DNA from: a phage | Length of the DNA: 43,319 nt | Sequence record: PX907400.1 | Direction: 5' to 3' (one strand) | Made by a program: the position numbers and the translations under genes | Part shown: in pieces, positions 982 through 31,461 of the stretch | How the letters are laid out: every line of letters begins with the position of its first letter | How positions within the stretch are numbered: position 1 is the stretch's first letter | The notes under the pieces: model-generated | Database searches by the model: none | What the model was told of the DNA's origin: nothing | Seen by the model: the letters and a program-made list of their open reading frames with translations, nothing else

Positions 982-1010
982 TTGCACACCCCAATATAAT
1001 AGGGTACTAT
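982..1010 (+). promoter_or_regulatory. sigma70-like promoter (-35 TTGCAC, 17-nt spacer, -10 TACTAT) with embedded AATAG-N4-CTATT operator
   Basis: Same architecture recurs at 20134..20162 and 21460..21489 upstream of minus-strand genes. Confidence 0.4.
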
Positions 1011-1040
1011 TCACTTACCCCAACAATGGAGGGATTTAAA

Positions 1041-1232
1041 ATGTCAAGTTTACCAGTTTCCTTAATTCTGTTTGCACTTCTCGTTTATTTTGCGCCTTTC
1101 CTGGTTGCGTACTTCCGTAACCATAAAGCGAAGTTAGCGATATTCATGGCTAATCTGTTTCTTGGCTGGGCGCTGCTGCCGTGGGTCTTTATTTTAATCT
1201 GGGCGTGCAACTCGAATGTTAACGAGAAGTGA
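1041..1232 (+). CDS. superinfection-immunity-like small membrane protein (Imm family-like)
   Basis: Two hydrophobic helices with FLGW...W...LIWA pattern; GGAGGG Shine-Dalgarno before ATG 1041 (track ORF starts at 1026). Confidence 0.5.
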   Translation: MSSLPVSLILFALLVYFAPFLVAYFRNHKAKLAIFMANLFLGWALLPWVFILIWACNSNVNEK

Positions 1233-1270
1233 GCTAGTATAGGACAAATCCTAAACACGAGGAAGTAAGT

Positions 1271-2401
1271 ATGGCCCAGAAGAAAATAACCGACGAACAG
1301 TTGCAGGAAGAATTGAACGCCGGGATGAAGAATATCGATATAGCTCGTAAATACGGCATCTCTGACCGCGTTATCCGTATCCGTAAAGCGAAGCTGGCTA
1401 AGAAAGGCGTAGGCCACGGGCGCGACGTTAGTCACCTTGTGCCGGACGGCTACAAGATTAAAGGAACGTCGTCGCTGGTGGACGAGTTCGGCAACACTAA
1501 GTTGCAATGGGTTAAGACCGACACCGATGCGGAACGTCAGGTCGAGTTAATGAAGGCCGTAATCGAGGGCATGAAGTCGGAGATTACCCCAGTTGCTCCT
1601 GTTAAAGCGACTCGGGCCAAACGTGACGATAAACTACTCAATCTTTACACTGTATCTGATTTCCATCTCGGTATGCTGGCATGGGCAGACGAGAGCGGCG
1701 ACGACTGGGACATGAAGATTGCAGAAGACCTGTTCTCTCGGTGGTTTGATGCCGCGTTTCAGAAAGCGCCTGACGCCGGAACAGGAGTTATTAACCTGCT
1801 GGGTGACCTTGCGCACTTCGATAGTCTGGACGCCGTTACCCCCGCAAGTGGTCATGTTCTTGATGCGGACACGCGCTATCAGAAACTGGTACGCTACATG
1901 ATTCGTATGGTACGTCGTGTTGTCGATATGGCCCTCGCTAAGCATAAAACTGTTCGCTTGCTTATCGTGCAAGGGAACCACGACGAAAGCGGAATGATTT
2001 GGTTAGCTGAGATGTTCAGCACGCTATATGACAATGAGCCGCGTGTGTTCGTCGATACGTCTCCAGATGTTTACAAGATGGTGCAACACGGCAAAACGAC
2101 ATTGTTCTTTCACCACGGGCATAAAGCACGCTTCGACGCTATCGAACCGGTTATGATTGCCAAGTTCCGCAAAGCGTTCGGCGAGAGCGTTTATAGCTAC
2201 GCCCACGTGGGTCACCTGCACCACCAAAAGATTGTAGAAAGCCGTAACATGATTGTTGAGCAACACCGCACTCTCGCGGCTAAAGATGCATATGCCTCCC
2301 GCGGTGGGTGGATGTCGGGCCGCAGTGCAAATGTAATTACTTATAGCGCCGAATATGGTGAGGTCGCACGTTTAACTATTTCACCGGAGATGCTGGGATG
2401 A
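1271..2401 (+). CDS. calcineurin-like metallophosphoesterase with N-terminal HTH domain
   Basis: Motifs DFH, GDLAH, GNHDE, HHGH, GHLHH; N-terminal HTH-like segment; AGGAAG Shine-Dalgarno. Confidence 0.7.
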   Translation: MAQKKITDEQLQEELNAGMKNIDIARKYGISDRVIRIRKAKLAKKGVGHGRDVSHLVPDGYKIKGTSSLVDEFGNTKLQWVKTDTDAERQVELMKAVIEGMKSEITPVAPVKATRAKRDDKLLNLYTVSDFHLGMLAWADESGDDWDMKIAEDLFSRWFDAAFQKAPDAGTGVINLLGDLAHFDSLDAVTPASGHVLDADTRYQKLVRYMIRMVRRVVDMALAKHKTVRLLIVQGNHDESGMIWLAEMFSTLYDNEPRVFVDTSPDVYKMVQHGKTTLFFHHGHKARFDAIEPVMIAKFRKAFGESVYSYAHVGHLHHQKIVESRNMIVEQHRTLAAKDAYASRGGWMSGRSANVITYSAEYGEVARLTISPEMLG

Positions 2402-2883
2402 AAGATATTGTGATTTTCGATTTAGACGGGACATTGGCGGACGGTACACATCGTTTACACCTGCTGCCGAAAGATAACTACAACGAAACATGGGCGTGGA
2501 AACCATTTAACATGGCGTGCAAAGATGATGAACCAATTAGAGATAACATCGAGCTGTGTAACGCCCTTAATCGCCGCTATGCCGTTATTATTTTAACGGG
2601 TCGCAGTGATGACGCAGAAAAAGAAACAAGAATGTGGCTGCAGCGCCACCGCGTCGAATTTTATCAGTTAATCATGCGCAGCAAACACGACAACAGAAAA
2701 GACATCGTAATTAAGGAAGAGGTGCTACGTGCTATCGGGTTAGAAAGAATCTTGTGCGCGTTCGACGATTCGCCTGCGGTGATTAAACATTTCCGCAGCT
2801 TAGGAATCACGACACACGCGGTTACGGAATACGGCTGCAACGGTACTTCTACACACTTAAAATCACACGGGAGCGATAAATAA
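2398..2883 (+). CDS. HAD-family phosphatase resembling the T4 Pnk 3'-phosphatase domain
   Basis: N-terminal DLDGTL (DxDxT) motif, TGRS and KEE motifs; ATGA overlap with the upstream gene. Confidence 0.65.
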   Translation: MKDIVIFDLDGTLADGTHRLHLLPKDNYNETWAWKPFNMACKDDEPIRDNIELCNALNRRYAVIILTGRSDDAEKETRMWLQRHRVEFYQLIMRSKHDNRKDIVIKEEVLRAIGLERILCAFDDSPAVIKHFRSLGITTHAVTEYGCNGTSTHLKSHGSDK

Positions 2884-3437
2884 TGGCTAAGGTAATCATC
2901 CTTAACGGACCTGCGGGATGCGGCAAAGATACGCTCGCTAGGGCGCTGGTAGAAATGGGTTTTGCGAAAGGAACCACCAGCTTCAAGAATCCAATGTTCA
3001 ATATCGCTCTTGCGGCATTAGGGCCAGATGCGTATCACGAGTTCCTCGACGGCTACGACGACCGGGCACGTAAAGAAAAGCCAGAAGGTTTCCTTAATGG
3101 GTTGTCTCGTCGTCAGTTCATGATTGCTATCTCTGAACAATTCATTAAACCGGTCCTCGGCAGCGATTATTTCGGTAAGTATCTCGCTGAAAACTTGCCC
3201 GACGGCGACGAAGTTTTTATAGTGTCCGACGGCGGGTTTGCCAGTGAAGTAGCCCCTATCGTCACCGCGGGTCATGATGTAAGAATCGTTCGCTTGCACC
3301 GAGAAGGCTATACGTTTGACGGGGATAGCCGGGGATATCTGTACGATATTGGTGGTGTTGAAGATTGTGATGCGTACATCATACCGGGGGACGTTAAATC
3401 TAACGTGATAGACATTGCTTTAAAATTAGGTTTGTAA
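2883..3437 (+). CDS. P-loop kinase, dNMP kinase-like (T4 gp1-like); a polynucleotide kinase role is not excluded
   Basis: Walker A GPAGCGKDT; overall resemblance to T4 gp1; start overlaps the upstream stop (TAATG). Confidence 0.65.
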   Translation: MAKVIILNGPAGCGKDTLARALVEMGFAKGTTSFKNPMFNIALAALGPDAYHEFLDGYDDRARKEKPEGFLNGLSRRQFMIAISEQFIKPVLGSDYFGKYLAENLPDGDEVFIVSDGGFASEVAPIVTAGHDVRIVRLHREGYTFDGDSRGYLYDIGGVEDCDAYIIPGDVKSNVIDIALKLGL

Positions 3438-3440
3438 GAA

Positions 3441-3467
3441 AAAGGCCCCTCTCGGGGCCTTAGTTTT
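3441..3467. terminator. bidirectional rho-independent terminator between convergent genes
   Basis: AGGCCCC-TCTC-GGGGCCT stem-loop flanked by T-runs on both strands. Confidence 0.6.
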
Positions 3468-4632
3468 ATGCGTAGGTGATACGCTGGATAACAATAGACG
3501 ACTGATACTGATTGCCAGTAGCCTGGCCTTCGATGGACTGAGTGATTGACTCAGGCCCGCCAATCTCAGGTGTAACCGCGGTAAGTTCTGCACGTTTCAA
3601 GCTGAAAGACATAGCCCCGTTTACCCCCGCCAGAATAGAGTTAATCTCTACCTGCTGCTCGTTGATAAACTTCTGAATCATAGCCATGTCGTACAGCTTA
3701 CCGGAGATGGAGAAGGTGTTAGCCGCGCGGCTACGCTCCACAAACGCCACGTTAGTGTTGCCGAGTTCGAACTGTGCGGACGCGCTGTTGTCGTTGGTGA
3801 TGGTCAGGCTGTCGCAACGCAACGGCGTAGAACCGTCGAACACAGAAACATCGACCGAGGAGAACGGCTCGTCACCAAACGTAACAGAGGAGAAATCAGA
3901 ACCAGACGGCTGCGTGGTGAGAATCTCCTGACTGCGACCGATGAACGGGAAGCTGCCAGTTACCATAGCGTTAACAGCCTGTTCGATGGTAAAACCAGAA
4001 ACTTCCACGCCTTTGGTTAGTGTGTACGCGTCAGTCCCGCCGCACTGGCCTTTGTACCAGGTGAGAATAGAGAACGTCTTGCACTGGCTTCCCGTTTCCA
4101 GTTTATCCCCTGTCTTAGCGGCGGTAGTTACTGTCTCTGTGGTCAGGGTATGCTGGATACCCGCCCCGGTCACTACCAGTGCCTCTACTGCAGTTACGAT
4201 AAACGGTTTTGCGTTGTCACCGGTTAAGTCGGTAAACGCAATCAGGTCGCCCACTTCAACGCCGTCAGAAATAAAGCTACCTTCGGCACGGGTAAAGGTC
4301 TTGCCGGCAGGCGCGACGGTAATTGATAGCCTGGTCAGAGAACTACCGGATTGCCATGTAGAGCCTAAAGCACCCGCCAGCCAGTCGTCCTGGCTTTTCG
4401 AGCTAAGCTCAATAGCGTATTCTCCGCTAACCTGCTTGTTACCGGTGCGGATTGACGTAGTTTCACGGCTGCCGTCCAGTTCGTTGGAGGTCAGCGTGTC
4501 GCGAGTAATAGCAGGAACGCCACCTGTGTTACGCAACGGCGACCAGACAGGGTTGTCTGGTGTTACGCCCGGGACAGTCTCCGCCACATAGAATTGCGCG
4601 GTAGTCGCGCCCTTAAAAGGAGTTGTAGCCAT
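3466..4632 (-). CDS. major tail protein (tail tube), putative
   Basis: Position after neck genes and before the tail chaperones; ATG 4632 with AAGAGG Shine-Dalgarno (track gives GTG at 4638). Confidence 0.55.
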   Translation of the reverse strand: MATTPFKGATTAQFYVAETVPGVTPDNPVWSPLRNTGGVPAITRDTLTSNELDGSRETTSIRTGNKQVSGEYAIELSSKSQDDWLAGALGSTWQSGSSLTRLSITVAPAGKTFTRAEGSFISDGVEVGDLIAFTDLTGDNAKPFIVTAVEALVVTGAGIQHTLTTETVTTAAKTGDKLETGSQCKTFSILTWYKGQCGGTDAYTLTKGVEVSGFTIEQAVNAMVTGSFPFIGRSQEILTTQPSGSDFSSVTFGDEPFSSVDVSVFDGSTPLRCDSLTITNDNSASAQFELGNTNVAFVERSRAANTFSISGKLYDMAMIQKFINEQQVEINSILAGVNGAMSFSLKRAELTAVTPEIGGPESITQSIEGQATGNQYQSSIVIQRITYA

Positions 4633-4634
4633 AT

Positions 4635-5051
4635 TCACAGCCTCTTGGTGAATGCAATAAAGTTAATTGACAATGGTCGTTTGGCCCATCCGTTTTCTAC
4701 AATCAGCGGCCCCAGGCTAACCGATTGAACCTCGGCGCAGATGTCGTTACGAGAAAATGACTTACCTGCTTTGAATGCCGTGTTAAGTAAGTCTGCCATT
4801 TTATTGATTGGCGCGCTACCTTTCACCGATGCGTAGTTAATGTCGACCTGATAAACACCCGCGCGTTGTTCCGTGAAGAACAAATCTGCTTGCTCGGTAT
4901 CCGCCAGTAACATGTAACTTGCCAGATATGGCGTATCGGTTGACGTCGGCGCGTCGATGTTTTCAAGCGCGACATTGATGCCGTTGGCGGTTCCGAAGGC
5001 TACCAGCGGAACATCGAACGCTTTTGTTAAGTCCTCAAAGTAGCCCATCAT
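4635..5051 (-). CDS. tail completion/terminator-like protein, putative
   Basis: 138 aa ORF in the neck region, overlapping its neighbours. Confidence 0.4.
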   Translation of the reverse strand: MMGYFEDLTKAFDVPLVAFGTANGINVALENIDAPTSTDTPYLASYMLLADTEQADLFFTEQRAGVYQVDINYASVKGSAPINKMADLLNTAFKAGKSFSRNDICAEVQSVSLGPLIVENGWAKRPLSINFIAFTKRL

Positions 5052-5443
5052 TTCACCTTGTTGGCTTCTTCGTTAATGAGTTGCTGGAAGCGGGACACAT
5101 TAGTCCTGACAACCCCGGCGGGGGCCTGTTGCGACCAGCCATACTCCAGCCGTTGTGCATACGGCAGATTATTTGTCAGCGTGAACTCGCGCCAGTCTGT
5201 AGCTTTAAGCACGAAACTTGTAGCGTTTCCGGTTGCCGTGTTTCCTGATTTATCCGTAGCGTCTGTAATTCCGGAAGCGGGAGTGCCGCCAGACGCCATC
5301 CAGTTCATACGAAAGCGACCTGTATCTACCGGACTTGCCTTTATGATAGCGGAAAACAGTTTGATAGACACCTGACGCATCACCTTCTCGGGGTTCTTCT
5401 TCGCCTTTTCCACGAACTTAGAGACATCAAGCGCGAAACTCAT
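5048..5443 (-). CDS. HK97 gp10-like head-tail joining protein, putative
   Basis: PVDTGRFR motif recalled from the gp10 family; position in the neck module. Confidence 0.45.
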   Translation of the reverse strand: MSFALDVSKFVEKAKKNPEKVMRQVSIKLFSAIIKASPVDTGRFRMNWMASGGTPASGITDATDKSGNTATGNATSFVLKATDWREFTLTNNLPYAQRLEYGWSQQAPAGVVRTNVSRFQQLINEEANKVK

Positions 5444-5799
5444 TTTCTCACCTGAATAAAATACGCCACGACATCATCGTTAACCATCTTCTTCTCGATA
5501 GCTACGACAGACCATTGCTCGCCGCCGAATTGTACCTTGTCTTCCATTTTTGGCACGACACTGCAATCCGCTTTAACAACCATGTCTCCCGCCTGAATGG
5601 TTGTGCCGTTAACCAAGCCCGAGTTAACCGGAACGGGTACGGCTTTCAGCGGCAGCACTTCATCATCTGACCAGATGTATTCGCCGAGAACTTCATCCCA
5701 CACTTTCGAGCCAGCGCGAACCAGAGATACCGTGCTGCCGAATTTGGCTAGCAGGCGTGTACCCACGCCCTGCATACGTTTACTAAAGGCGGTGCTCAT
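5440..5799 (-). CDS. head-tail connector protein, putative
   Basis: ATG 5799 with GGAGG Shine-Dalgarno (the track ORF extends to 5853 without one). Confidence 0.4.
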   Translation of the reverse strand: MSTAFSKRMQGVGTRLLAKFGSTVSLVRAGSKVWDEVLGEYIWSDDEVLPLKAVPVPVNSGLVNGTTIQAGDMVVKADCSVVPKMEDKVQFGGEQWSVVAIEKKMVNDDVVAYFIQVRK

Positions 5800-6413: not shown

Positions 6414-6415
6414 TT

Positions 6416-6928: not shown

Positions 6929-6931
6929 AAA

Positions 6932-7111
6932 TTATTCCTCAGACTTACGGCGACGACGCTTAGTGCCACCGCCGTTGTTGTGCGCTTCTTCGTTGTCCGG
7001 TTGGGTCGCAACCAGTTCATCCGCTTCTACAACACCGCGCACGGGTATCACCTGACCATCAACCATATCAACGTGGGTGTACTTTTCGCGGATTACATAA
7101 TTATCTGCCAT
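6932..7111 (-). CDS. small basic protein (59 aa)
   Basis: ATG 7111 with AAGGAAAGG Shine-Dalgarno; C-terminal GGGTKRRRRK; below the track length cutoff. Confidence 0.35.
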   Translation of the reverse strand: MADNYVIREKYTHVDMVDGQVIPVRGVVEADELVATQPDNEEAHNNGGGTKRRRRKSEE

Positions 7112-7147
7112 GACCTTTCCTTATTACGGCCCCGAAGGGCCGCTGTA

Positions 7148-7498: not shown

Positions 7499-7510
7499 TT
7501 TTAAGCTCCT

Positions 7511-8925: not shown

Positions 8926-8927
8926 TA

Positions 8928-10227: not shown

Positions 10228-10424
10228 TAAAGCCCCGCCTTAAAGCGGGGCGCTAGTCCTTATCATTTAAACATAGAAACGGCGTAATCTCAGTAAACCA
10301 GTTACTTTTTACACAAGCAATAGAGTAAGGCCCTTCCGAACGCGTCAGCGCAACTACACTCGGACTTAACGTCCGGCTCCGTTACCTGCCGCGCCGCGGT
10401 CGCTTGTTCATACTTCACAAGCTC
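10228..10424 (-). ncRNA. putative sRNA or structured leader (copy A of a duplicated element)
   Basis: Conserved promoter then ~110-nt block shared with 21655..21752; GCTTGT...ACAAGC hairpin and a covarying hairpin; ends at GCCCCGC...GCGGGGC stem. Confidence 0.3.
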
Positions 10425-10430
10425 AGGTGG

Positions 10431-10459
10431 AGCTTAGCACATTTTTGGTGAAAAGTCAA
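10431..10459 (-). promoter_or_regulatory. sigma70-like promoter (-35 TTGACT, 17 nt, extended -10 TGcTAAGCT)
   Basis: Identical -35 and -10 hexamers and spacing at 21759..21787; palindrome AACTATTCGAATAGTT overlaps the -35. Confidence 0.45.
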
Positions 10460-10521
10460 CTATTCGAATAGTTTATTCCAACATTTACAATTGAGTGGAA
10501 TAACTGGAATAATCACAGGCA

Positions 10522-10544
10522 CTAAAAAGCCCCTTTCGGGGCTT
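10522..10544 (-). terminator. rho-independent terminator after the Ig-like gene
   Basis: AAGCCCC-GAAA-GGGGCTT stem followed by TTTTT on the minus strand. Confidence 0.55.
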
Positions 10545-10548
10545 CGGT

Positions 10549-11010
10549 TTATTCTGGCTTAGTAACCTTCGCCGCTTTACTGACGGCCTCTACCCCATCG
10601 GCATCGGTGACTTTAACGAAGTATTCACCGACAGCATTAACCGTCAGAGACAAAGCCTCTTCTGGGGCGTTTACCACTTCCTTGCCGTCTTTGTACCAGG
10701 TCAGTACACACGGCGCTTTACCTGCCTTAACTTCGACGGTGATGGTGGCGCTACCGTCGACCAGCTCGGTGTCTTTCGGTTGCACCGAGAAATACACGTC
10801 ACCTGCATCCGCCAGATACGGAATTTCATAAAGCATGCCCGCCGCGGGTAACGCAATACCGGTTTTATCTGCAAACGGCATATCGTCTTCGGGTGTACCG
10901 AGTACACTTTCATCATCAATAAACACCACGTTCTCTCCAGAGCCAGACACGCGGGCGTACTGGACTACGCGACGTGACGGTACATCAGTTACTTTGAAAA
11001 AGCCCATCAT
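10549..11010 (-). CDS. Ig-like domain protein
   Basis: CVLTWYKDGKEV...GEYFVKV resembles an I-set Ig-like domain. Confidence 0.5.
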   Translation of the reverse strand: MMGFFKVTDVPSRRVVQYARVSGSGENVVFIDDESVLGTPEDDMPFADKTGIALPAAGMLYEIPYLADAGDVYFSVQPKDTELVDGSATITVEVKAGKAPCVLTWYKDGKEVVNAPEEALSLTVNAVGEYFVKVTDADGVEAVSKAAKVTKPE

Positions 11011-15409: not shown

Positions 15410-15507
15410 AGAATCCCCTCGCATATGCGTCTGACCATCAGAGCGCATCAGACGCGCCCTACGCGTCTAAAGGGATTATATAAGGGGATTGGGCGGGATG
15501 TACAGAA

Positions 15508-15628: not shown

Positions 15629-15787
15629 TCATTTGAAGAAACCATCCTTGACAAGCTGACGGTATAGTTTAGCTGCGTAACGCTCTGCCTGGCCTTTGCG
15701 CCGAAATATTTTCCCATTAACTGAATACTTATTTAACTCTGGCTCGTACCAAACTTGGTTGTCGATGAACTCCAGAATACTAATCAT
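15629..15787 (-). CDS. hypothetical small protein (52 aa)
   Basis: ATG 15787 overlaps the upstream stop; below the track cutoff. Confidence 0.3.
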   Translation of the reverse strand: MISILEFIDNQVWYEPELNKYSVNGKIFRRKGQAERYAAKLYRQLVKDGFFK

Positions 15788-16044
15788 TCCCCACTCCCCT
15801 CTTTAGCAATACGTTGCTCTGTTTTAGTAATACCCCGGCGCGTGAATAACACCGGGCTTGTCTTAACGTGCGTCATCAGACGATTGTTATAAATTACATG
15901 GCGTTCACAATCGACGTCTTTGCTGTACTTCGCAATCGTCATTTCGTTGATGCCGGTTTGTCGGCATGTCTCCGCCATCGTGCCAAATTCTTTAATCAGG
16001 TTCGGAATGCTGGTAATCATCCTAAGAAATTCCTCGTTGTCCAC
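15784..16044 (-). CDS. HTH DNA-binding protein, putative
   Basis: 86 aa with an HTH-like segment (TMAETCRQTGINEMTIAKYS). Confidence 0.4.
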   Translation of the reverse strand: MDNEEFLRMITSIPNLIKEFGTMAETCRQTGINEMTIAKYSKDVDCERHVIYNNRLMTHVKTSPVLFTRRGITKTEQRIAKEGSGE

Positions 16045-17460: not shown

Positions 17461-17489
17461 AATATAATAGGGTCTAAGGTAATAGTCAA
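17461..17489 (-). promoter_or_regulatory. sigma70-like promoter (-35 TTGACT, 17 nt, -10 TATATT)
   Basis: Hexamers at correct spacing; contains ATATAATAGGG also seen at 992..1004. Confidence 0.35.
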
Positions 17490-17511
17490 CTAGTCATTAC
17501 AGAAAACAGAT

Positions 17512-18666: not shown

Positions 18667-18741
18667 GATGAATCCTCCAGGTGCGTATTAAGTATGCAGT
18701 AACTGGAGGATAGCACGGTTAGGAATTATCCTAATAGTTGT

Positions 18742-19035
18742 TTATTTATGTCTCCAGATGTATTGTCGTCTCTGTGGTTTCGTCGGAATATCATCGTATC
18801 CAAGCGATTTCCAGTAATTAAATAGCCGATTAGCGATTGCTGCGCGTTCCTGTGTTTTAAACTCACCGAGATTCACAGCCTTCCCGTTCTGGAATCCACA
18901 GGCGCGTACCGCTTTGCGTCTGGCCTGAATCTCGGGGTACAGAGCGTTACGGCGGCGCTTGTGTATACGCGTATTCGCTCTCGGCGACAGCGGCGCAAGG
19001 CCGCTTCGTTTCAGGATGTCAGTTGCTAACGACAT
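18742..19035 (-). CDS. AP2-like DNA-binding domain protein, putative
   Basis: NLGEFKTQERAAIANRLFNYW resembles an AP2 domain; ATG 19035 overlaps the upstream stop. Confidence 0.4.
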   Translation of the reverse strand: MSLATDILKRSGLAPLSPRANTRIHKRRRNALYPEIQARRKAVRACGFQNGKAVNLGEFKTQERAAIANRLFNYWKSLGYDDIPTKPQRRQYIWRHK

Positions 19036-20102: not shown

Positions 20103-20133
20103 ATTCTGTCTCCCCTCTCGTTCGTGTAAATGA

Positions 20134-20162
20134 ATAGTAGCCTATTATATCTTAGTGTGCAA
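20134..20162 (-). promoter_or_regulatory. promoter (-35 TTGCAC, 17 nt, -10 TACTAT) with AATAG-N4-CTATT operator
   Basis: Same architecture as 982..1010 and 21460..21489. Confidence 0.4.
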
Positions 20163-21425: not shown

Positions 21426-21459
21426 AACCCTCACTCCTCTGTCTCGTTTCGATAAGTGA

Positions 21460-21489
21460 ATAGTATCCTATTATGTTGGGGGTGTGCAA
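21460..21489 (-). promoter_or_regulatory. promoter (-35 TTGCAC, 18 nt, -10 TACTAT) with AATAG-N4-CTATT operator
   Basis: Same architecture as 982..1010 and 20134..20162. Confidence 0.4.
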
Positions 21490-21544: not shown

Positions 21545-21752
21545 CGAAACGAACGTGGTGCCGAAGGCACCAAGAGTGAGTGAGTGAGCTTGCGGTTCTA
21601 ACCTACGGCAAATCAGTAACTTAGATATTTAGGCGGGAATTACAATAGACTTTGGCCCTTCCGAATGCGCCAGCGAGCCTCACTCCACACGTCAAGACGT
21701 GCTCGTTTCGCCTGCCGCGCACCGCGGTCGCTTGTTCATACTTCACAAGCTC
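21545..21752 (-). ncRNA. putative sRNA or structured leader (copy B of the duplicated element)
   Basis: Conserved promoter then ~110-nt block shared with 10329..10424; ends near the GGTGCC-GAAG-GGCACC hairpin. Confidence 0.3.
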
Positions 21753-21758
21753 AGGACG

Positions 21759-21787
21759 AGCTTACCATATTTCTTAGTAAAAGTCAA
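21759..21787 (-). promoter_or_regulatory. sigma70-like promoter (-35 TTGACT, 17 nt, -10 TAAGCT)
   Basis: Identical hexamers and spacing to 10431..10459. Confidence 0.45.
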
Positions 21788-21834
21788 TACAAGTAGCATC
21801 TTTTGCGCCTTAGTAACTTTGTGTGGTGTTTTGG

Positions 21835-21892: not shown

Positions 21893-22063
21893 ATGACTAT
21901 CAATGAAGTTGCAGAATTAATCGGTGTCACCCGCCAGACAATTAATAACTGGATTAAGAGTGGAAAGTTTCCAGATTGCGGCGTTAAAGTAATGGGCCGC
22001 CGGATGCCGGGAACATTCGACCGTAATAAAGTTGAAGCGTGGATTAAGGAGAACGTGAAATGA
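21893..22063 (+). CDS. AlpA-like HTH transcriptional regulator
   Basis: MTINEVAELIGVTRQTINNWIKSGKFP HTH; GGAGAA Shine-Dalgarno (track ORF starts at TTG 21803). Confidence 0.6.
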   Translation: MTINEVAELIGVTRQTINNWIKSGKFPDCGVKVMGRRMPGTFDRNKVEAWIKENVK

Positions 22064-24730: not shown

Positions 24731-24740
24731 GCAAAAAGAA

Positions 24741-24757
24741 AGGGGCGTTAAGCCCCT
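24741..24757. terminator. stem-loop/terminator between convergent genes
   Basis: AGGGGC-GTTAA-GCCCCT with T-rich flank on the minus strand. Confidence 0.4.
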
Positions 24758-24963
24758 TCACCGAACGCCAGCCACTTAGCGTCTACTTGCAGCACTTCCG
24801 CCAGTTTAAACAGCGTCGCCGGGCGGACGTCCTGAGTTACCCCAAGTGCCAGCTGGTTAATCGCGCCCTGGGAAACACCGGCCAGGACAGCCAGACGGCG
24901 TTGGGAAATGCCGAGTTCTTTACGGCGCTGTTCTACGCGGATGCCTAGTTCAGATGGTTGCAT
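24748..24963 (-). CDS. XRE-family HTH transcriptional regulator (Cro/CI-like)
   Basis: ISQRRLAVLAGVSQGAINQL HTH; divergent from the rightward operon; AAGGAG Shine-Dalgarno. Confidence 0.65.
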   Translation of the reverse strand: MQPSELGIRVEQRRKELGISQRRLAVLAGVSQGAINQLALGVTQDVRPATLFKLAEVLQVDAKWLAFGEGA

Positions 24964-24983
24964 GTCAATTACTCCTTAGTCAG

Positions 24984-25012
24984 TTGATATGTGAATAGTA
25001 CCATATTAATTA
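24984..25012 (+). promoter_or_regulatory. promoter/operator-like element (TTGATA + GTGAATAGTACCATATTA)
   Basis: Degenerate copy of the operator in the divergent region; direction uncertain. Confidence 0.3.
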
Positions 25013-25027
25013 TTTTAGAAAAGCCCA

Positions 25028-25056
25028 TTGACACGTGAATAGTTCGCTATTATAGT
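25028..25056 (+). promoter_or_regulatory. sigma70 promoter (-35 TTGACA, 17 nt, -10 TATAGT) with AATAG-N4-CTATT operator in the spacer
   Basis: Near-consensus hexamers; same architecture at 27724..27752 and 31430..31458. Confidence 0.55.
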
Positions 25057-25087
25057 TAACCCATACCAAACGAGAGGAGAGAAACAA

Positions 25088-25606
25088 ATGTTAGACCAAT
25101 TCTTAAAATTACTGGAACGTTTCGTAGTTGCGCATGAACTGATTGCCGCTAACAGCGAGAAACCACAAAACGGCAAATCAGTAGGTGAATTAACCGTTGA
25201 TGTTGCGGTAACTGGGGTAGAGACAGTTAAAAAAGAACTGGCTAAAGCACTTGAAGAAGTAGAGAAGGCGAAAGAAATCCCGGTTGAAGGTGAAGACATC
25301 GTCGACACTAAACCAGCAGAAGAAGAGAAGCCGAAACGCAAGCCGCGTAAATCTAAAGTAGAGGAACCGACGCCAGAACCGGAAGAGAAGGAAGAAGTAG
25401 ATTACCAGTCTCTGCGTGACCAGATTCAGGCTATCGACGATGCAATTAATGAAGGTCCGAGCGACGCCGCGTGCGATGATTCCGATGAACTGCTGGAAGA
25501 GTTCACCGGTAAGAAGATGAAGATTGCCGCGATTAAAGACGAAGACCTTGCCGAATACCTGGAACGCCTGACGGCAATCAAGAACAAGTATTTCGAAGAA
25601 GAATAA
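25088..25606 (+). CDS. acidic early protein of unknown function
   Basis: 172 aa rich in E/D/K; first gene downstream of the promoter at 25028. Confidence 0.5.
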   Translation: MLDQFLKLLERFVVAHELIAANSEKPQNGKSVGELTVDVAVTGVETVKKELAKALEEVEKAKEIPVEGEDIVDTKPAEEEKPKRKPRKSKVEEPTPEPEEKEEVDYQSLRDQIQAIDDAINEGPSDAACDDSDELLEEFTGKKMKIAAIKDEDLAEYLERLTAIKNKYFEEE

Positions 25607-25649
25607 TTATCCCACGGCCTTCGGGCCGCTTTAACTGAGGGTCGGGATT

Positions 25650-26048
25650 ATGAAATACGAAGAAATGAGTGATTTTGAAATTAATTGTGCGGTGGCAGTT
25701 GTATTAGGTTTAAGTGAACACCTGTTCTTCCCTTCTGGAACTGATTACTTCGACAGTGATACAGATGAGTCAGATATGGGGCCGATATGGCAAACAGGCA
25801 GGTTGTGGGTTAAAGGTTTAAGAGCATCAAACGGTAACCTATTCAACCCTTGCAATAATGTAGAGCAATCATGGCCTATCATTATTAAAAACAGAATTGG
25901 CACAATTCCAGCTCCAGATAATGGATTGTGGAAGGCTGCGCACAGAAAGGTAGGCAATGATGATACACCATACCATTTTACTCAAGATAAAAACCCACTC
26001 CGCGCCGCTATGATTGTTTTCATGAAAATGCAGGGGGTTGCGGAATGA
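25650..26048 (+). CDS. hypothetical protein
   Basis: 132 aa ORF. Confidence 0.5.
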   Translation: MKYEEMSDFEINCAVAVVLGLSEHLFFPSGTDYFDSDTDESDMGPIWQTGRLWVKGLRASNGNLFNPCNNVEQSWPIIIKNRIGTIPAPDNGLWKAAHRKVGNDDTPYHFTQDKNPLRAAMIVFMKMQGVAE

Positions 26049-26317
26049 TTTATCAACTCTACCGCGGCATCGACCGACGGGATAGCACAGAGGCGTTGTG
26101 GTTGTTGCGTGCGCCGTCAGGTGCGCACCAGATGGAAGAGATGGCCTACCTTGGAAAAATACCGAAGCCGAAAGATATAGGCCGTCACCTGTCGCAGATT
26201 AAGCGCACGACTTTCGTTAAAAGTGACTTTTATGTCTTCGAGTCGATGTATAGCTGGGCTATGCATTGCGACCATAAGACGCGGCATTTAATCGACCAGT
26301 GGGAGGTCAGGGTATGA
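26045..26317 (+). CDS. hypothetical protein
   Basis: 90 aa, ATGA overlap. Confidence 0.45.
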   Translation: MIYQLYRGIDRRDSTEALWLLRAPSGAHQMEEMAYLGKIPKPKDIGRHLSQIKRTTFVKSDFYVFESMYSWAMHCDHKTRHLIDQWEVRV

Positions 26318-26472
26318 CGAACCGTAAAGCGCGACTTCTATTTGTTAGACGTCACCAGCCTTTTCGAGTGAGTAACTCAACTTGGCTGGTCATCTTCAAC
26401 CGTAGTGGCGACACGTGCGCCTGCAAACGTAAAACGCGTAAAGCTAAATGGGGTGTGGGGTTAAGAGCATGA
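26314..26472 (+). CDS. hypothetical small basic protein (52 aa)
   Basis: GGGAGG Shine-Dalgarno; ATGA overlaps on both sides. Confidence 0.3.
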   Translation: MTNRKARLLFVRRHQPFRVSNSTWLVIFNRSGDTCACKRKTRKAKWGVGLRA

Positions 26473-27716
26473 AACTAAAAGAACGCGGCGGCAATAACGA
26501 TGTGCACGCCTTACTGTCGCCGTCTGGAGCTAAAAAGTGGTTAACCTGCCCCGCATCACTGGCCTGTGAAAAAGATATTCCTAACACGTCAGGTAAAGCG
26601 GCGGTATTAGGCACAGCTATGCACACCATAGCTGAGATGCACCTTAACCAGTACATCAAAGGCACTGCGCTGCCGTTAGCGCGTGAAGTTGGCGCGTATG
26701 TACTGGATGAAGGAAAAGGCCAGATTAAGGCGCTAATCAGCCCAATGAAAGGCTCGGTACTGATTACCGCCGACATGATTGAACAGGTGCGCAAGTACAC
26801 CGACTACTGCAAAGCGATTATCGACGTTGCAACTTACGCAAAGCTGGAGATGCGGGTAAATCTTACTGAGGTGCTGCATCCGGGTTACGAAGGCGTTGAG
26901 ACATTCGGAACCGCCGACATTGTTGCCGTTCAGGAACTGGCGAACACCGACGAGCACATGCTCATTATTGGCGACCTTAAAACTGGACGGCATCGTGTTG
27001 AAGCGAAAGAAAACAAGCAGCTTATGCTTTACGCTCTCGGTGTTTATCGCCGACTCAAGAGACGTTATAACATCACAGTAGTGCGCCTGGTCATCTTCCA
27101 GCCGTACGCGGGGGGTGCGTCAGAGTGGGACATCTCGGTCGAAGGTCTGGAACTGTTCGCTAAGTTCGCACAGAAACGGGCACTGTTAGCGCTTGATGCT
27201 TATTTCCGTGGAAAGAAGAACCTGAAAGCGTCGGACTTTAAACCGTCGGTCGATGGTTGCCAGTGGTGCCGGTTCTCTGAACAGTGTGCCGCGCGTACAA
27301 AGACGGTTAATTCTGTACTGGCGGAAGAACTTGAAGACGACTTTGTGCTGGAACTGACGACGGAGCAACTCGTAGTTGAGTATGAGAAGTTGCCGCTGTT
27401 GCGCCAGCACATCGACAAGGTTGAGAAAGCGATGTCCGCCGCATTGCATTCCGGTAAGAAAGTGCCAGGGTACAAACTGGTAGAAGGCCGCCCGGGTAAT
27501 CGTGCGTGGAAAGATGCCGATGCGATTGAAGTGTCACACGGCGACATTCTCAAAAAAGAGGTATTGATGTCCCCTACGGAGGCAGCAAAAGTTCTTTCTG
27601 CGGATGAGATGGCAGCGCTTGAGCCGTTTATTACCCGTAAGCCAGGCGCACCATGTGTCGCAACGGCAGGCGACAAACGTCCTGAGTGGAATCAGGTTAG
27701 TGAAGAAGATTTATAA
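26448..27716 (+). CDS. PD-(D/E)XK nuclease with Cas4-like Cys cluster (DUF2800-like)
   Basis: N-terminal CPASLAC, C-terminal CQWCRFSEQC, GDLKTG and QLMLYALGVY motifs; alternative start at 26469. Confidence 0.6.
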   Translation: MGCGVKSMKLKERGGNNDVHALLSPSGAKKWLTCPASLACEKDIPNTSGKAAVLGTAMHTIAEMHLNQYIKGTALPLAREVGAYVLDEGKGQIKALISPMKGSVLITADMIEQVRKYTDYCKAIIDVATYAKLEMRVNLTEVLHPGYEGVETFGTADIVAVQELANTDEHMLIIGDLKTGRHRVEAKENKQLMLYALGVYRRLKRRYNITVVRLVIFQPYAGGASEWDISVEGLELFAKFAQKRALLALDAYFRGKKNLKASDFKPSVDGCQWCRFSEQCAARTKTVNSVLAEELEDDFVLELTTEQLVVEYEKLPLLRQHIDKVEKAMSAALHSGKKVPGYKLVEGRPGNRAWKDADAIEVSHGDILKKEVLMSPTEAAKVLSADEMAALEPFITRKPGAPCVATAGDKRPEWNQVSEEDL

Positions 27717-27723
27717 TAAAGTG

Positions 27724-27752
27724 TTGACACCTGAATAGTTAGCTATTATAGT
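27724..27752 (+). promoter_or_regulatory. sigma70 promoter (-35 TTGACA, 17 nt, -10 TATAGT) with operator
   Basis: Near-identical to 25028..25056. Confidence 0.55.
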
Positions 27753-27805
27753 TCTAATCACTGGCCGGGCAGTTCCCGGAGTAAACTGAAAAGCGAGAAA
27801 TCACG

Positions 27806-28432
27806 ATGGGTATTAAACTGAATCTGCGTAAAGTAAACACTGCATGGGTTAACGTATTCGAACGCGAAAAAGACCGTGAAAACGATGATGGCTCAATCAC
27901 TAAAGGCCAGTACAGCGCGACTATCATCCTGCCGTCTGACCACGCACAAATCGACGCGCTCTACGACACCGTTTACGCTGTGGTTGAAGAAGCGTTGGGC
28001 GCAGCTGCCGCTGAGAAGTGGATGAAGTCAAACTACGGCGAAGGTAAGCACATGGATAAATGTGCGATTAAAGACATTGCCGAGCGCGACAATCCGTTTG
28101 AAGACTTCCCGGAAGGCTTCTACTTCAAGGCGAAGGCACAGAAACAGCCACTGATTGTAACCTCTAAAAAAGGCGAGACTCAGGTAGAACAGGACTTCAA
28201 TGTAGACGGCGAACAGATTGAAGGTGAACAGGTTTACAGCGGCTGCGTCGCTAACGTAAGCGTTGAAATCTGGTTCAGTCAGAAATATAAAGTCCTCGGC
28301 GTTAACCTGCTGGCGATTAAATACATTGGCGAAGGCAAAGCGTTTGGCGGTTCTAAAGTAGCCGCAAGCGTCAACGACCTGGAAGACGACGAAGAAGATG
28401 AAGCACCGCGCCGCGAACGTCGTCGCCGCTAA
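27806..28432 (+). CDS. ssDNA-binding protein (DUF2815-like), putative
   Basis: Acidic C-terminal tail DLEDDEEDEAP; sits between the nuclease and polymerase genes. Confidence 0.5.
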   Translation: MGIKLNLRKVNTAWVNVFEREKDRENDDGSITKGQYSATIILPSDHAQIDALYDTVYAVVEEALGAAAAEKWMKSNYGEGKHMDKCAIKDIAERDNPFEDFPEGFYFKAKAQKQPLIVTSKKGETQVEQDFNVDGEQIEGEQVYSGCVANVSVEIWFSQKYKVLGVNLLAIKYIGEGKAFGGSKVAASVNDLEDDEEDEAPRRERRRR

Positions 28433-28452
28433 TATCTGAATCAATTTAACTA

Positions 28453-28475
28453 AGGCCCTTCATTGGGCCTTTTTA
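28453..28475 (+). terminator. rho-independent terminator
   Basis: AGGCCC-TTCATT-GGGCCT followed by TTTTT. Confidence 0.6.
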
Positions 28476-28491
28476 CTAAGGGTCGAAAATA

Positions 28492-28647
28492 ATGTTTTTC
28501 TGTAAACACGTTTATCGCTATATGAAACCGCTTCCTTGGTACGCGGATGAGTACCGGGCCGGGTACAGGCATGTGGGGATTTGCCGTGATTGTATGAAAA
28601 TAAGACTCAGCGAAACGAAGGCACTGGATTTAAGGAAAAAGAAATGA
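28492..28647 (+). CDS. small zinc-ribbon-like protein (51 aa)
   Basis: CxxH...CxxC; stop overlaps the polymerase ATG (ATGA). Confidence 0.3.
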   Translation: MFFCKHVYRYMKPLPWYADEYRAGYRHVGICRDCMKIRLSETKALDLRKKK

Positions 28648-30824
28648 GCTACTTATACCTGGACTTTGAAACATTCTCCGAAGCCGATTTAAAGAAAGTC
28701 GGTTCCTACGCTTACGCCGAACACCCAACCACCGAAGTGCTTATCTGCACATATGCTTTTGACGACGAGCCTGTACAGGTATGGGACTGCACCGACGGCA
28801 GCGACATGCCGGGGGATTTGCATCGCGCGTTACGCCGTCTGGTGAAACCAAATAGTCGCATTAAGATGGTATGGCACAACGGCTCAATGTTCGACAGGCT
28901 CATCATGAAACACTGCTGGGGCTTTGATATTCCCGTAAGCAACACCATTGATACGATGATTTGGGCGTTTCGTCACGCGCTGCCGGGTTCACTTGATGCG
29001 CTGTGTGAAGTGCTTGGCGTGTCTGCTGACAATGCAAAAGATAAACGCGGCAAGGCGCTGATTCAGCGTTTCTCTAAACCGACACCGAAGAATTACAAAA
29101 TCCGCCGCTACACCGCAGAAACACACCCGGACGAGTGGGCGCTGTTCATCAAGTACGCCGTGAGCGACATCACTGCGATGCGTGAAGTCTTCCATAAGCT
29201 GCCGCGTTGGGGTAACTCTGAGTTCGAAGACCGTGTACTGGAACTGGACCAGTTAATCAACGACCGCGGGTTTAAGGTTGACGTTGCACTGGCGGAAGCC
29301 GCTACTGAAGCCGTGGAGAAACACAAAGCGCAGTTACAGGAGGAAGCCCAACGCAAATACGGCGGCTCGCTTACTGGTAAGGACTTTCTGCCGATTCTTC
29401 GTGAACTCGCCCCTGCACACCGCATACACAACGCACAGAAGTCGACGCTTAACGACCTGCTGGCGGACGATGATTTACCGGACGACGCACGCACAGTTAT
29501 CGAAATGCGCCTCGGGGCCGCGTCCACCGCGTCAACGAAATATAACCCGCTGCTGTTGGGCCGCTCGTCTGACGACCGACGCCGTGGTTGCATACAATAT
29601 GGTGGAGCTAAGCGTACGTTACGGTTTGCAGGTAAAGGCTTCCAGCCGCAGAACCTCGCGCGCGGGTACTATCACGATGATGAACTGGATAAAGGAATTT
29701 CTGCGTTACTTAAGGGCCGCGCTCATCGTCGATTTGACGTAGCCAAGCTAACGGCATCTACCGTTCGTAGCTGCATCATACCGGAAACTGGACATAAGTT
29801 TGTCGTTGCCGATTACTCTAACGTCGAAGGCCGCGGGCTTGCGTGGCTGGCGGGGGAAGAAACCGCGCTAGATACGTTCCGTGCCGGACTGGATATTTAC
29901 TGCGTAACCGCGGGTAAGATGTTCGGTATGGAGCCGGATTACATTAAGAAAGAACGTAAAGATTTGCGCCAGATTGGTAAGGCCTGCGAACTTGGGCTTG
30001 GCTATGCGGGCGGTGTCGGCGCATTCGTACAGTTCGCCAAGAACCTTGGCCTTGACCTGGTTGATATGGCAAAAACAATGGATGGGACTTTCCCCGACCA
30101 CATCTGGGCTGCTACCGCACGTGGATATGAGTGGGCGCGTATTCAGGAAGCCAAGCGACCACCACGTCCAGGTGAAAAGGATGACCGACCATCATATATT
30201 CTTGATAAGAAAGTGTGGCGTACCTGTGACGCTATCAAGCGCATGTGGCGCGAGTCTCACCCGGAAACAGTAGCTTTCTGGCGAGATATTGAAGACGCAG
30301 CTATGGCAGCTATCCGCAATCCAGGTAAAGAGTTCACTGCAGGGCCTCGCGGCGTTAAGTTTTCACGCAACGTAGAGACAGACAACAACGGCAACAAAGT
30401 CGCCGGTTGGTGGTTGCGCATGACGTTGCCGTCGGGCCGCGTTATGTCTTATCCAGGTGTCGGGTTAAGCGTGTCGAAAGAGACAGACGAAGACGGGAAG
30501 GTGTCCACTAACGTCCGCATCAAGTACCAGGGCGAAAACCAGTTAACACGGCAGTGGGGCTTCCAGTACACATATTCCGGTAAACTCGTGGAAAACTGCA
30601 CTCAGGCGCTGTGCCGTGATTTGTTGGCTAATGCGCTGCTTAACGTAGAAGCAAACGGCTATCCGATTGTGCTTCACGTACACGATGAGATTATCTGCGA
30701 GACACCAGATTTACCAGAATACAATGTTGCAGAACTGGAACGATTGATGTGCGAATTACCAGAGTGGGCCGAGGGGTTCCCTCTTGTAGCAGAAGGCGCG
30801 GAGATGAAGCGTTATGCCAAGTAA
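28644..30824 (+). CDS. family A DNA polymerase with 3'-5' exonuclease domain
   Basis: Exo motifs DFETFS, HNGSMFD, YAVSD; polymerase motifs DYSNVE, KACELGLGYAGG, HVHDE; ATG 28644 with AAGGAAAAA Shine-Dalgarno. Confidence 0.85.
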   Translation: MSYLYLDFETFSEADLKKVGSYAYAEHPTTEVLICTYAFDDEPVQVWDCTDGSDMPGDLHRALRRLVKPNSRIKMVWHNGSMFDRLIMKHCWGFDIPVSNTIDTMIWAFRHALPGSLDALCEVLGVSADNAKDKRGKALIQRFSKPTPKNYKIRRYTAETHPDEWALFIKYAVSDITAMREVFHKLPRWGNSEFEDRVLELDQLINDRGFKVDVALAEAATEAVEKHKAQLQEEAQRKYGGSLTGKDFLPILRELAPAHRIHNAQKSTLNDLLADDDLPDDARTVIEMRLGAASTASTKYNPLLLGRSSDDRRRGCIQYGGAKRTLRFAGKGFQPQNLARGYYHDDELDKGISALLKGRAHRRFDVAKLTASTVRSCIIPETGHKFVVADYSNVEGRGLAWLAGEETALDTFRAGLDIYCVTAGKMFGMEPDYIKKERKDLRQIGKACELGLGYAGGVGAFVQFAKNLGLDLVDMAKTMDGTFPDHIWAATARGYEWARIQEAKRPPRPGEKDDRPSYILDKKVWRTCDAIKRMWRESHPETVAFWRDIEDAAMAAIRNPGKEFTAGPRGVKFSRNVETDNNGNKVAGWWLRMTLPSGRVMSYPGVGLSVSKETDEDGKVSTNVRIKYQGENQLTRQWGFQYTYSGKLVENCTQALCRDLLANALLNVEANGYPIVLHVHDEIICETPDLPEYNVAELERLMCELPEWAEGFPLVAEGAEMKRYAK

Positions 30825-30945
30825 ACTGATTATCGCGGTACTGGCGGGATTTGCTGCCGGTGTCTACTGTCACGAGGGTCAATACGGCATGATGGTCGCC
30901 ATATTAGGCATGTTCATCGCAATTTATCTGTGGGTGCTGGAATGA
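30814..30945 (+). CDS. small membrane protein (43 aa)
   Basis: Hydrophobic; overlaps the polymerase 3' end and the next ATG. Confidence 0.3.
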   Translation: MPSKLIIAVLAGFAAGVYCHEGQYGMMVAILGMFIAIYLWVLE

Positions 30946-31031
30946 AAATCTACTGGTTTTATGAAGAAGACTGTCGAATCTGTCCGCGCTGCGGTATTGA
31001 ACATACGAAACTGGAGGGGTGCGTACTATGA
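30942..31031 (+). CDS. zinc-ribbon peptide (29 aa)
   Basis: CRICPRCG; ATGA overlaps on both sides. Confidence 0.3.
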   Translation: MKIYWFYEEDCRICPRCGIEHTKLEGCVL

Positions 31032-31180
31032 CAATGTTTGTATTTCGGACGATAGTAACCATGCTCGCACTGTTACTCGGGGCGGGAATAGCCGCGATGT
31101 TCTGTTACGGCCTGTTCTTTAAGTTTGCCGGTGTTGCCGTTCTAGGCGGGGCGTTTATAACTTGGGTTCTGCGCTCATGA
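31028..31180 (+). CDS. small membrane protein (50 aa)
   Basis: Hydrophobic; stop overlaps the VRR-NUC ATG. Confidence 0.3.
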   Translation: MTMFVFRTIVTMLALLLGAGIAAMFCYGLFFKFAGVAVLGGAFITWVLRS

Positions 31181-31461
31181 CCCCGGAAGGCAAAATACAG
31201 AAATACGCAAAAGAGCGATTCGAGGCCATTGGTGGCCTCGTTCGTAAGCTCTCCTACGAAGGACGTTCGGGTGCCCCTGACCTGCTGGTAATTCTCCCCG
31301 GCGGCATAGTCTGGTTCGTCGAGGTGAAGAAAGACGAAAACACGAAGCCAGACCCGCACCAGATACGTGAGCACGAGCGGATGCGTAAACGTGGTGCGAA
31401 TGTTTTTGTCGTTGGTTCGTTTAAACAGGTTGACGACCTAATAGCGAGCTATTATAGTTAG
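31177..31461 (+). CDS. VRR-NUC domain nuclease
   Basis: PDLLVILPGG...FVEVKK PD-(D/E)XK core. Confidence 0.6.
   Translation: MTPEGKIQKYAKERFEAIGGLVRKLSYEGRSGAPDLLVILPGGIVWFVEVKKDENTKPDPHQIREHERMRKRGANVFVVGSFKQVDDLIASYYS
31430..31458 (+). promoter_or_regulatory. sigma70 promoter (-35 TTGACG, 17 nt, -10 TATAGT) with operator, embedded in the 3' end of the VRR-NUC gene
   Basis: Same architecture as 25028 and 27724. Confidence 0.5.

Follow-up and report, generated by a model that had tools for sequence, protein, structure and literature searches.

A shared AATAG-N4-CTATT palindrome on sigma-70-type promoters of a Kagunavirus genome, a putative operator of its Cro-like protein

Introduction

Why would a virulent phage carry one and the same palindrome on promoters dispersed over much of its genome, and which protein would read it? 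This question is raised by the 43,319-nt sequence record PX907400.1 (hereafter the window, i.e. the whole stretch of DNA analysed), in which an earlier note, made from the letters only, had described a family of promoters sharing the inverted repeat AATAG-N4-CTATT and had ascribed this repeat to one dimeric regulator. As presented below, the answer considered probable is that transcription would rely on the sigma-70 polymerase of the host, that the palindromes would be 14-bp operators sitting on the main promoters, and that an autoregulated, Cro-like dimer of the XRE-family protein encoded at 24748-24963 would shut the early and middle promoters.

Megablast of the 20-32 kb region returned 465 phage records, the top matches being Kagunaviruses of Escherichia coli (fTaEco01, MirsaeidiM_Esher4; 93-95% identity), followed by several hundred Jerseyviruses of Salmonella. 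By these matches, the window is identified as an essentially complete, circularly permuted genome of a Kagunavirus, i.e. a virulent siphovirus of the Guernseyvirinae. In the annotated relatives, the genes from terminase to tail lie on one strand and the replication module on the opposite one, the latter encompassing a helicase-primase, an exonuclease, a single-stranded DNA (ssDNA)-binding protein of the Gp2.5/Enc34 type, a DNA polymerase I, a C5-methylase and a helicase; these relatives additionally encode lysis genes and numerous small open reading frames (ORFs). No CI-type repressor, integrase or excision/lysogeny module was found among the ORFs of the window or in the annotated relatives, and Rfam and tRNA searches of the window gave no match.

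A palindrome shared by two promoter architectures

The pattern AATAGNNNNCTATT has exactly six matches in the window (998, 20133, 21459, 25038, 27734 and 31440) for 0.03 expected by shuffling, a number that none of 100 shuffled sequences reached, and allowing one mismatch raises the count to 11 for 0.93 expected. In a census of all palindromes made of two 5-nt half-sites 4 nt apart, AATAG ranks first, with 6 occurrences in the window, 7 in Bas71, 7 in Schulenburg and 5 in the Jerseyvirus S100; the sole other recurrent half-site, GCCCC, is part of terminator hairpins. Counting k-mers for motif discovery proved unsuitable, being swamped by codon bias. With a position weight matrix (PWM) built from the six consensus sites, for which the maximum in shuffled sequence averages 12.7 bits, these sites score 19-21 bits; next come 24994 (14.8 bits), 17481 (14.1 bits) and 10451 (14.1 bits), and scores then drop to about 10 bits. 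The scan of the genome that the earlier note had proposed as a check, once run, separates the six consensus sites from weaker variants. All six lie, at the positions first given for them, on sigma-70-type promoter-like sequence just 5' of gene blocks with ribosome-binding sites, namely ahead of a superinfection-immunity/phosphoesterase cassette, two small-gene blocks and three replication/recombination blocks. Seven copies share the extended asymmetric motif (g/t)GAATAGT-N3-CTATTATA, and inclusion of the weak variants at 17481, 10451 and 18733 would bring the family above the at least seven promoters first counted.

Two promoter architectures carry this one 14-bp palindrome, as had been put forward. 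In class I, TTGAC(A/G)-17-TATAGT, the operator occupies positions 5-18 of the spacer, and the promoters match 10-11 of the 12 sigma-70 consensus positions, being the three best sigma-70 matches in the 17-35 kb region. The promoter at 25028-25056 (plus strand, TTGACA-17-TATAGT; operator 25038-25051) is divergent from the XRE gene and would drive the genes at 25088-27716, the one at 27724-27752 (plus strand, TTGACA-17-TATAGT; operator 27734-27747) would drive the block of the ssDNA-binding protein and DNA polymerase, and the one at 31430-31458 (plus strand, TTGACG-17-TATAGT; operator 31440-31453) a block with a small gene, the C5-methylase and the helicase. The coordinates, the 17-nt spacing and the location of the operator in the spacer all agree with the initial description of this class, the -35 TTGACA being corrected to TTGACG for the third member. 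Promoter and operator at this third locus are embedded in the last codons of a VRR-NUC (Holliday-junction resolvase-like) ORF (31162-31461, plus strand), so that these bases double as coding and regulatory sequence.

In class II, TTGCAC-17/18-TACTAT, the operator covers the -10, the final six bases of this region falling within it, and the extended motif is inverted relative to the direction of transcription. The members are 982-1010 (plus strand, TTGCAC-17-TACTAT; operator 998-1011, AATAGGGTACTATT, 20.4 bits), designated P998 and predicted to drive the superinfection-immunity/phosphoesterase cassette from 1026, 20134-20162 (minus strand, TTGCAC-17-TACTAT; operator 20133-20146, 19.0 bits), predicted to drive small genes from 20102 downwards, and 21460-21489 (minus strand, TTGCAC-18-TACTAT; operator 21459-21472), predicted to drive small genes from 21434 downwards; hexamers, spacing and overlap with the -10 are as first described. 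The site at 20133 has an orthologue in both Bas71 and Schulenburg. P998 also has an overlapping alternative at 972-1000 (plus strand, ATCACA-17-TATAAT) with a perfect -10, for which the operator would extend from about -9 to +5. A TATAAT within the spacer was considered as the true -10 of class II, and set aside as neither the other members of this class nor the relatives conserve it, leaving it as an alternative for P998 only.

With hexamers 17-18 nt apart, within the 16-18 nt expected of sigma-70 promoters, and 15-45 nt between each promoter and the ribosome-binding site of a gene on the correct strand, both classes are predicted to be used as sigma-70 promoters of the host type. The palindrome itself is, judging from this layout, an operator and not a promoter element, because its position and orientation with respect to the -35 and -10 differ between the two classes and because S100 shows a third spacing (TTGCAT, 7 nt, operator).

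Conservation of the half-sites

Regarding the evolutionary pattern, 38 IMG/VR loci were fetched via the XRE protein and not via the motif, and the intergenic region from the XRE gene to the class I promoter was aligned (35 unique sequences). No difference was found at the operator half-sites (0 of 350 positions) or at the -35 (0 of 210), and a single one at the -10 (1 of 210); in contrast, the operator centre differed at 18 of 140 positions (12.9%) and the linker between operator and -35 at 28 of 140 (20%), the class I leader reaching 8.4% and the remaining intergenic DNA about 3%. The footprint argument rests on this contrast of the half-sites with the centre and linker. Centres among class I orthologues include TTCG, TTCA, TTAG, CGAG, CGAA, CAAA and CGGA, among others, and also differ from one site to the next. 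Besides, the 14-mer at 21459 recurs unchanged in 18 of 19 related loci, which had been fetched by the class I pattern, the class II site at 21459 thus lying outside the trigger, and the palindrome is retained across genera where its flanks have diverged.

These features are the signature of a site for a dimeric helix-turn-helix (HTH) protein, as read from the alignments, because the outer half-sites are conserved, the centre is free and the site at 18733 shows a symmetric double substitution (see below); they are unlike what a polymerase element or a duplication relic would be expected to leave. One dimeric regulator, as first put forward, remains the best reading of half-sites that are fixed next to a centre and linker that vary.

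The Salmonella Cornellvirus PhiSTP1 has the same class I architecture with a variant motif, e.g. TTGACAtagaATTAGTACAGTATTATAGT. The variant ATTAG-N4-GTAWW, which is non-palindromic, stands on orthologous promoters and has 6 matches (10615, 14245, 14308, 17319, 17935 and 31656) versus 0.30 expected. The top palindrome of PhiSTP1, CGCTA-N4-TAGCG, was treated as chance, every copy being inside coding sequence and without promoter context.

The XRE protein as candidate repressor

Among the small proteins of the window, Pfam points to just three DNA-binding candidates, namely the XRE protein, an AlpA/excisionase-like protein and a sub-threshold NinH-like protein (15784-16044). The XRE/434-Cro-like gene (24748-24963, minus strand) encodes 71 aa with an HTH_3 domain (PF01381, 48.1 bits for a cut-off of 23), the best PDB sequence match of which is 434 Cro (E 4.9e-7; 71 aa versus 71 aa, residues 6-68 of the query on 4-64 of the chain). 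An AlphaFold2 model with a predicted local distance difference test (pLDDT) score of 79.6 has five helices (5-17, 21-28, 32-39, 48-57 and 62-66), helices 2 and 3 forming the HTH, and Foldseek matched it to 434 Cro/repressor, SinR, C.AhdI and P22 c2 with template-modelling (TM) scores of 0.73-0.80, HipB being matched too (TM 0.7-0.8). The first four of these, 434 Cro/repressor, SinR, C.AhdI and P22 c2, act as dimers on palindromic operators. The 434 operator is 14 bp long with a variable centre, its outermost A being read by Gln28, and the residue aligned to Gln28 is a Gln in every Guernseyvirinae XRE protein compared (four lineages).

The XRE gene adjoins two operators 44 bp apart, and a terminator-like hairpin (24739-24759, minus strand) overlaps its stop codon, making it a one-gene transcription unit. 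It occupies the corresponding position in Kaguna-, Jersey- and Cornellvirus and in the Hafnia phage TS33, was present in every Guernseyvirinae genome examined, and is carried by about 500 GenBank records. In PhiSTP1, this gene immediately precedes that of the helicase-primase and is read in the same direction. Helices 2 and 3 are invariant across Kagunavirus XRE proteins of 77-100% overall identity, in parallel to the invariant half-sites. A wide search for homologues brought just Kagunavirus-type proteins of 77-99% identity and no temperate relative with AATAG operators, a distant IMG/VR match having an unrelated, high-GC context. In the lambdoid Klebsiella phage RCIP0098, a 45%-identical protein is the cro product, encoded beside cI and cII with 434-type ACAA operators; because this homologue sits as cro next to cI and cII, the XRE protein family is, by such gene context, a genuine Cro lineage.

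Provided that the site is an operator, the XRE protein is likely to be its binder. Of the two regulators initially considered, i.e. the XRE-like and AlpA-like proteins, the former is retained as a 434 Cro homologue that is encoded beside two operators and occurs in all Guernseyvirinae genomes examined, and the latter is disfavoured, having no counterpart in PhiSTP1.

The probable promoter of the XRE gene and putative weaker variants of the operator

The copy at 24994-25007 (AATAGTACCATATT, 14.8 bits, one perfect half-site) was first described as a degenerate class I promoter at 24984-25012. This description is not upheld: the copy is oriented as in class II when read on the minus strand (AATATGGTACTATT), and lies over the predicted promoter of the XRE gene, 31 nt upstream of its start codon. 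Because of this orientation and of its place directly upstream of the XRE gene, it is more likely the minus-strand promoter of that gene itself than an extra class I copy. A single G-to-T change (AATAG to AATAT) generates the extended -10 TGgTACTAT (24995-25003, minus strand) in a promoter with no recognisable -35. A second candidate, alternative or additional, is TTCACG-16-TAAAAT (25039-25012). The degenerate form of the 24994 site is itself invariant in the 35 sequences, and its Jerseyvirus counterpart reads AATAGTACAGTAAT.

Three further sites are, together with 24994, counted as probable weak variants on other promoters, so that the weaker grade would concern the promoter of the regulator itself, that of the lysis genes and two more upstream of structural genes. 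At 17481-17494 (minus strand, ACTAGTTGACTATT, one mismatch, 14.1 bits), a site that 11 of 13 related loci retain, the centre and right half constitute the -35 TTGACT of a promoter at 17489-17461 (minus strand, TTGACT-17-TATATT; 10 of 12 consensus positions), which comes after the terminator ending the lysis genes and upstream of small genes and the terminase. At 10451-10464 (minus strand, AATAGTTGACTTTT, one mismatch, 14.1 bits), the site contains TTGACT as a possible -35, belongs to the 3' end of the first copy of a repeated element described further below, and lies upstream of the block of spanin, scaffold and capsid genes, for which it is a putative promoter. These two sites share the minus-strand reading A(C/A)TAG-TTGA-CT(A/T)TT and may represent a third promoter architecture (17461-17494 for the former), with the operator over the -35, ahead of structural-gene blocks. 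Finally, 18733-18746 (minus strand, AATAAACAACTATT, 9.8 bits) occupies the spacer of a weak predicted promoter (18754-18725, minus strand, GAGACA-18-GATAAT) ahead of the holin genes; most relatives have here the symmetric form AATAA-ACCG-TTATT, both half-sites being changed at the same position.

Another promoter-like sequence, TGTACA-18-TATAAT at 15475-15504 (minus strand), follows a terminator hairpin and immediately precedes the gene for the small terminase subunit; it bears no operator, is covered by just two related loci, and is a candidate constitutive or late promoter.

Proposed regulation and competing explanations

In the regulation considered probable, each recognition helix of an XRE dimer would read one AATAG half-site, leaving the central 4 bp uncontacted, and the bound protein would exclude the polymerase, the operator extending from about -25 to -12 in class I and from about -20 to -7 in class II. 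Repression rather than activation is expected, because the operator overlaps the polymerase surface and the spacers are of 17-18 nt, not the 19-20 nt of the MerR type. As it accumulates, the XRE protein would shut first the early, replication and cassette promoters, which bear consensus operators; at higher levels, it would shut its own promoter, with its half-perfect operator, hence limiting its own synthesis, and perhaps the lysis and late promoters with their weak variants, such weaker-variant promoters possibly remaining open longer. The analysis establishes the motif, where it is placed, how it is conserved and the homology of the protein, whereas binding of the XRE protein to the motif, repression upon binding and the graded affinities are inferred.

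A more ambitious version is doubtful when taken as a whole. It would have the entire temporal programme of a virulent family run by one Cro-sized repressor and graded operators, the order of shut-off being set purely by affinity, with consensus sites on early, replication and cassette promoters and deliberately weakened ones on the repressor's own, lysis and late promoters; the weakening base at the XRE promoter would double as an extended -10, two late-type operators would contain the -35, and a temperate immunity region would have given rise to the system as its 'Cro-only' descendant.

Should the operator be genuine, its reader could be another protein than XRE. An unrecognised small phage protein, such as the weakly NinH-like one mentioned above, or a regulator of the E. 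coli or Salmonella host is an unlikely candidate: numerous small phage ORFs have no Pfam match, and the motif is unchanged across phages with different hosts and divergent XRE proteins, yet no other conserved protein of a suitable kind than XRE is encoded beside the operators, no link to a host regulon was found, and the motif change in the Cornellvirus is genus-specific although its host is the same as that of the Jerseyvirus. As a lead and not a test, variants like ACTAGTTAACTATT in some relatives resemble the core of the TrpR operator, ACTAGTTAACTAGT; TrpR needs CTAG, however, and the consensus here has ATAG, which counts against it. The AlpA/excisionase-like HTH_17 protein (21893-22063, plus strand; Pfam HTH_17, E 6e-10) is quite unlikely to be the binder, even though it is an HTH protein. 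Small proteins of the HTH_17/Xis/BldC type have no dimerisation module and typically sit head-to-tail on direct repeats, not on 14-bp palindromes, which is counted against AlpA; moreover, no operator adjoins the AlpA-like gene, and PhiSTP1, which retains the promoter architecture and an XRE orthologue, has no AlpA-like homologue (best hidden Markov model E-value 0.37). In its favour, RNA-seq of the Kagunavirus K1B4 lists just four early genes, including the HTH gene _008, most replication genes being 'middle' (PMC12645636), and by gene order _008 is probably the AlpA-like gene. The label 'early', first given to the plus-strand genes behind class I promoters, is hence a tentative one.

The palindrome could also be no operator at all. 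It is very unlikely that it has no dedicated binder and either survives from the duplication of promoter modules or merely results from -10-like hexamers that overlap. The asymmetric flanks common to the seven copies (gtGAATAGT...CTATTATA) do suggest descent by duplication, but the half-sites are invariant while centre and linker change, the palindrome outlasts its flanks across genera, and the double change at 18733 in most relatives (AATAA...TTATT) is symmetric, as for a dimer site. Likewise, the right half-site partly coincides with the class II -10 (TACTAT), yet class I half-sites form no -10 and the opposite strand of class II offers no usable -10/-35 pair. A symmetric, bidirectional -10 was also rejected as the source of the palindrome, TAnnnT being present on one strand only and neither class I half-site forming it. 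As for the motif being the promoter of a phage-specific or modified RNA polymerase, this is barely conceivable: PHIRE finds seven copies in fBC-Eco01, labelled as phage-RNA-polymerase promoters (PMC9825357), and seven in Golestan (PMC7203180), but no RNA polymerase gene occurs in the ORF list of the window or in the annotation of three relatives, and the palindrome lies within -35/-10 pairs of the sigma-70 type, where its orientation (two) and its position (three or more) with respect to transcription vary as they would not for the recognition element of a polymerase.

Several points nonetheless weigh against repression by the XRE dimer. Its assignment to the operator is circumstantial. The recognition helix is SQGAINQL in Kagunaviruses and SQSLITHL in Jerseyviruses despite their common AATAG/CTATT, and the helices of the Jersey- (SQSLITHL) and Cornellviruses (TQSAISHL) are similar despite different motifs; therefore, helix and operator do not covary cleanly. 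Between the Kaguna- and Jerseyviruses that share the motif, the AlpA-like protein is 78-80% identical, whereas XRE is 52% identical with a changed helix. The intergenic regions are well conserved genus-wide, so that invariance of the half-sites is by itself weak evidence, and the PhiSTP1 pattern was defined after four of its sites had been seen. The class II promoters, conserved and correctly placed as they are, match just 7 of 12 consensus positions and are not called by a consensus scanner, and could need an activator. Lastly, the K1B4 RNA-seq, the sole such study of a Kagunavirus, has time points too coarse to resolve a shut-off (PMC12645636).

Repeated non-coding element, probable terminators and cassette

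Beyond the operators, the window contains a non-coding element of about 150 nt in two direct copies (10315-10465 and 21640-21790, plus strand; about 85% identity), which is conserved, likewise twice per genome, in Kagunaviruses as well as Jerseyviruses. The second copy is just upstream of the operon of the AlpA-like and helicase-primase genes, the sole major transcription unit without an operator-bearing promoter. Compensatory changes are found, one pair being C:G seven times, U:A four times and A:U three times; G:U pairs occur on the plus strand only, and one hairpin keeps its pairing despite a replaced sequence. As regards a full secondary structure, the pairing in the MAFFT alignment is inconsistent from one type of paralogue to the other. 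Two mutually exclusive hairpins lie in the 3' part, which is invariant (GCTTGT/ACAAGC and AAGCTC/GAGCTT), the same part being also readable as a promoter, TTCACA-18-CATATT. The element had no Rfam, tRNA or tmRNA match, and may correspond to a leader or other non-coding RNA, to a signal for priming or an origin, or to a promoter-operator of a second kind.

Near-identical, GC-rich hairpins of the form AAAAGGCCCC-N4-GGGGCCTT, with T-runs on both strands, occur at 3440-3467, 10524-10551 and 34229-34256, i.e. at the three points of convergence between gene blocks, and probably act as terminators in both directions. The first gene of the cassette under P998 belongs to the superinfection-immunity (Imm) family (1026-1232, plus strand; Pfam E 2.4e-13); its slot, flanked by the genes for the tail tube and the tail chaperone, is a variable 'moron' position, the cargo of which differs among relatives.

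Significance and comparison with known systems

The Guernseyvirinae are among the phages most often isolated for therapy and biocontrol of E. coli and Salmonella. The regulation proposed here would yield a simple model, with one protein, one 14-mer and 7-10 promoters, and would explain the recurrent 'repressor' or 'Cro' annotation in virulent phages, an annotation that raises safety questions for therapy though the lysogeny module is absent. It would be an ordinary gene-timing circuit, bringing no new regulatory principle.

The motif itself is already known. PHIRE promoters reported for fBC-Eco01, with the consensus tgAATAGTa-ccTATTat-T (PMC9825357), and for Golestan (PMC7203180) represent the same motif in about the same copy number, regarded there as the recognition sequence of a phage-encoded RNA polymerase and here as an operator on host-type promoters. 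The motif is not linked to HTH proteins in either report (PMC9825357; PMC7203180), and the published polymerase-promoter label is here regarded as a misreading. In the literature searched, no mechanistic study of Guernseyvirinae transcription or of their repressor-operator control was found.

In phage P1 with C1, mycobacteriophage L5 with gp71 and its 'stoperators', and phiC31 with the c repressor and its inverted repeats, one repressor acts on many scattered, promoter-linked operators. The system proposed here would be alike in having one phage repressor with operators genome-wide on promoters. In contrast, P1, L5 and phiC31 are temperate and their repressor keeps lysogeny, whereas the present phage is virulent; besides, the sites of P1 and L5 are asymmetric and bound by monomers, unlike the palindrome described here. 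The C proteins C.AhdI and C.BclI, C proteins being among the best structural matches, are, like the XRE protein, small XRE-fold proteins, which as dimers on palindromic boxes overlying their own promoter regulate their own synthesis; they differ by controlling a single operon from tandem boxes, as both activator and repressor, whereas many promoters and no restriction endonuclease are involved here.

The closest parallels are drawn with phage 434, the Cro of which has the same length of 71 aa, aligns over its full length with the XRE protein and shares its five-helix fold, and the operators of which are likewise of 14 bp, with conserved outer bases, an outermost A and a variable, uncontacted centre. 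In both systems, operators are found between divergent promoters that include the regulator's own. The half-site is AATAG here and ACAA in 434, and the CI partner, integrase and lysogeny module are lacking from the window and its relatives. While 434 has three tandem sites at both OR and OL, just two sites, 44 bp apart, lie between the XRE gene and the gene at 25088, unlike a lambdoid switch, the others being single and dispersed on 7-10 promoters over about 30 kb. Finally, the XRE gene holds a cI-like position, divergent from the early operon, though its product is Cro-sized.

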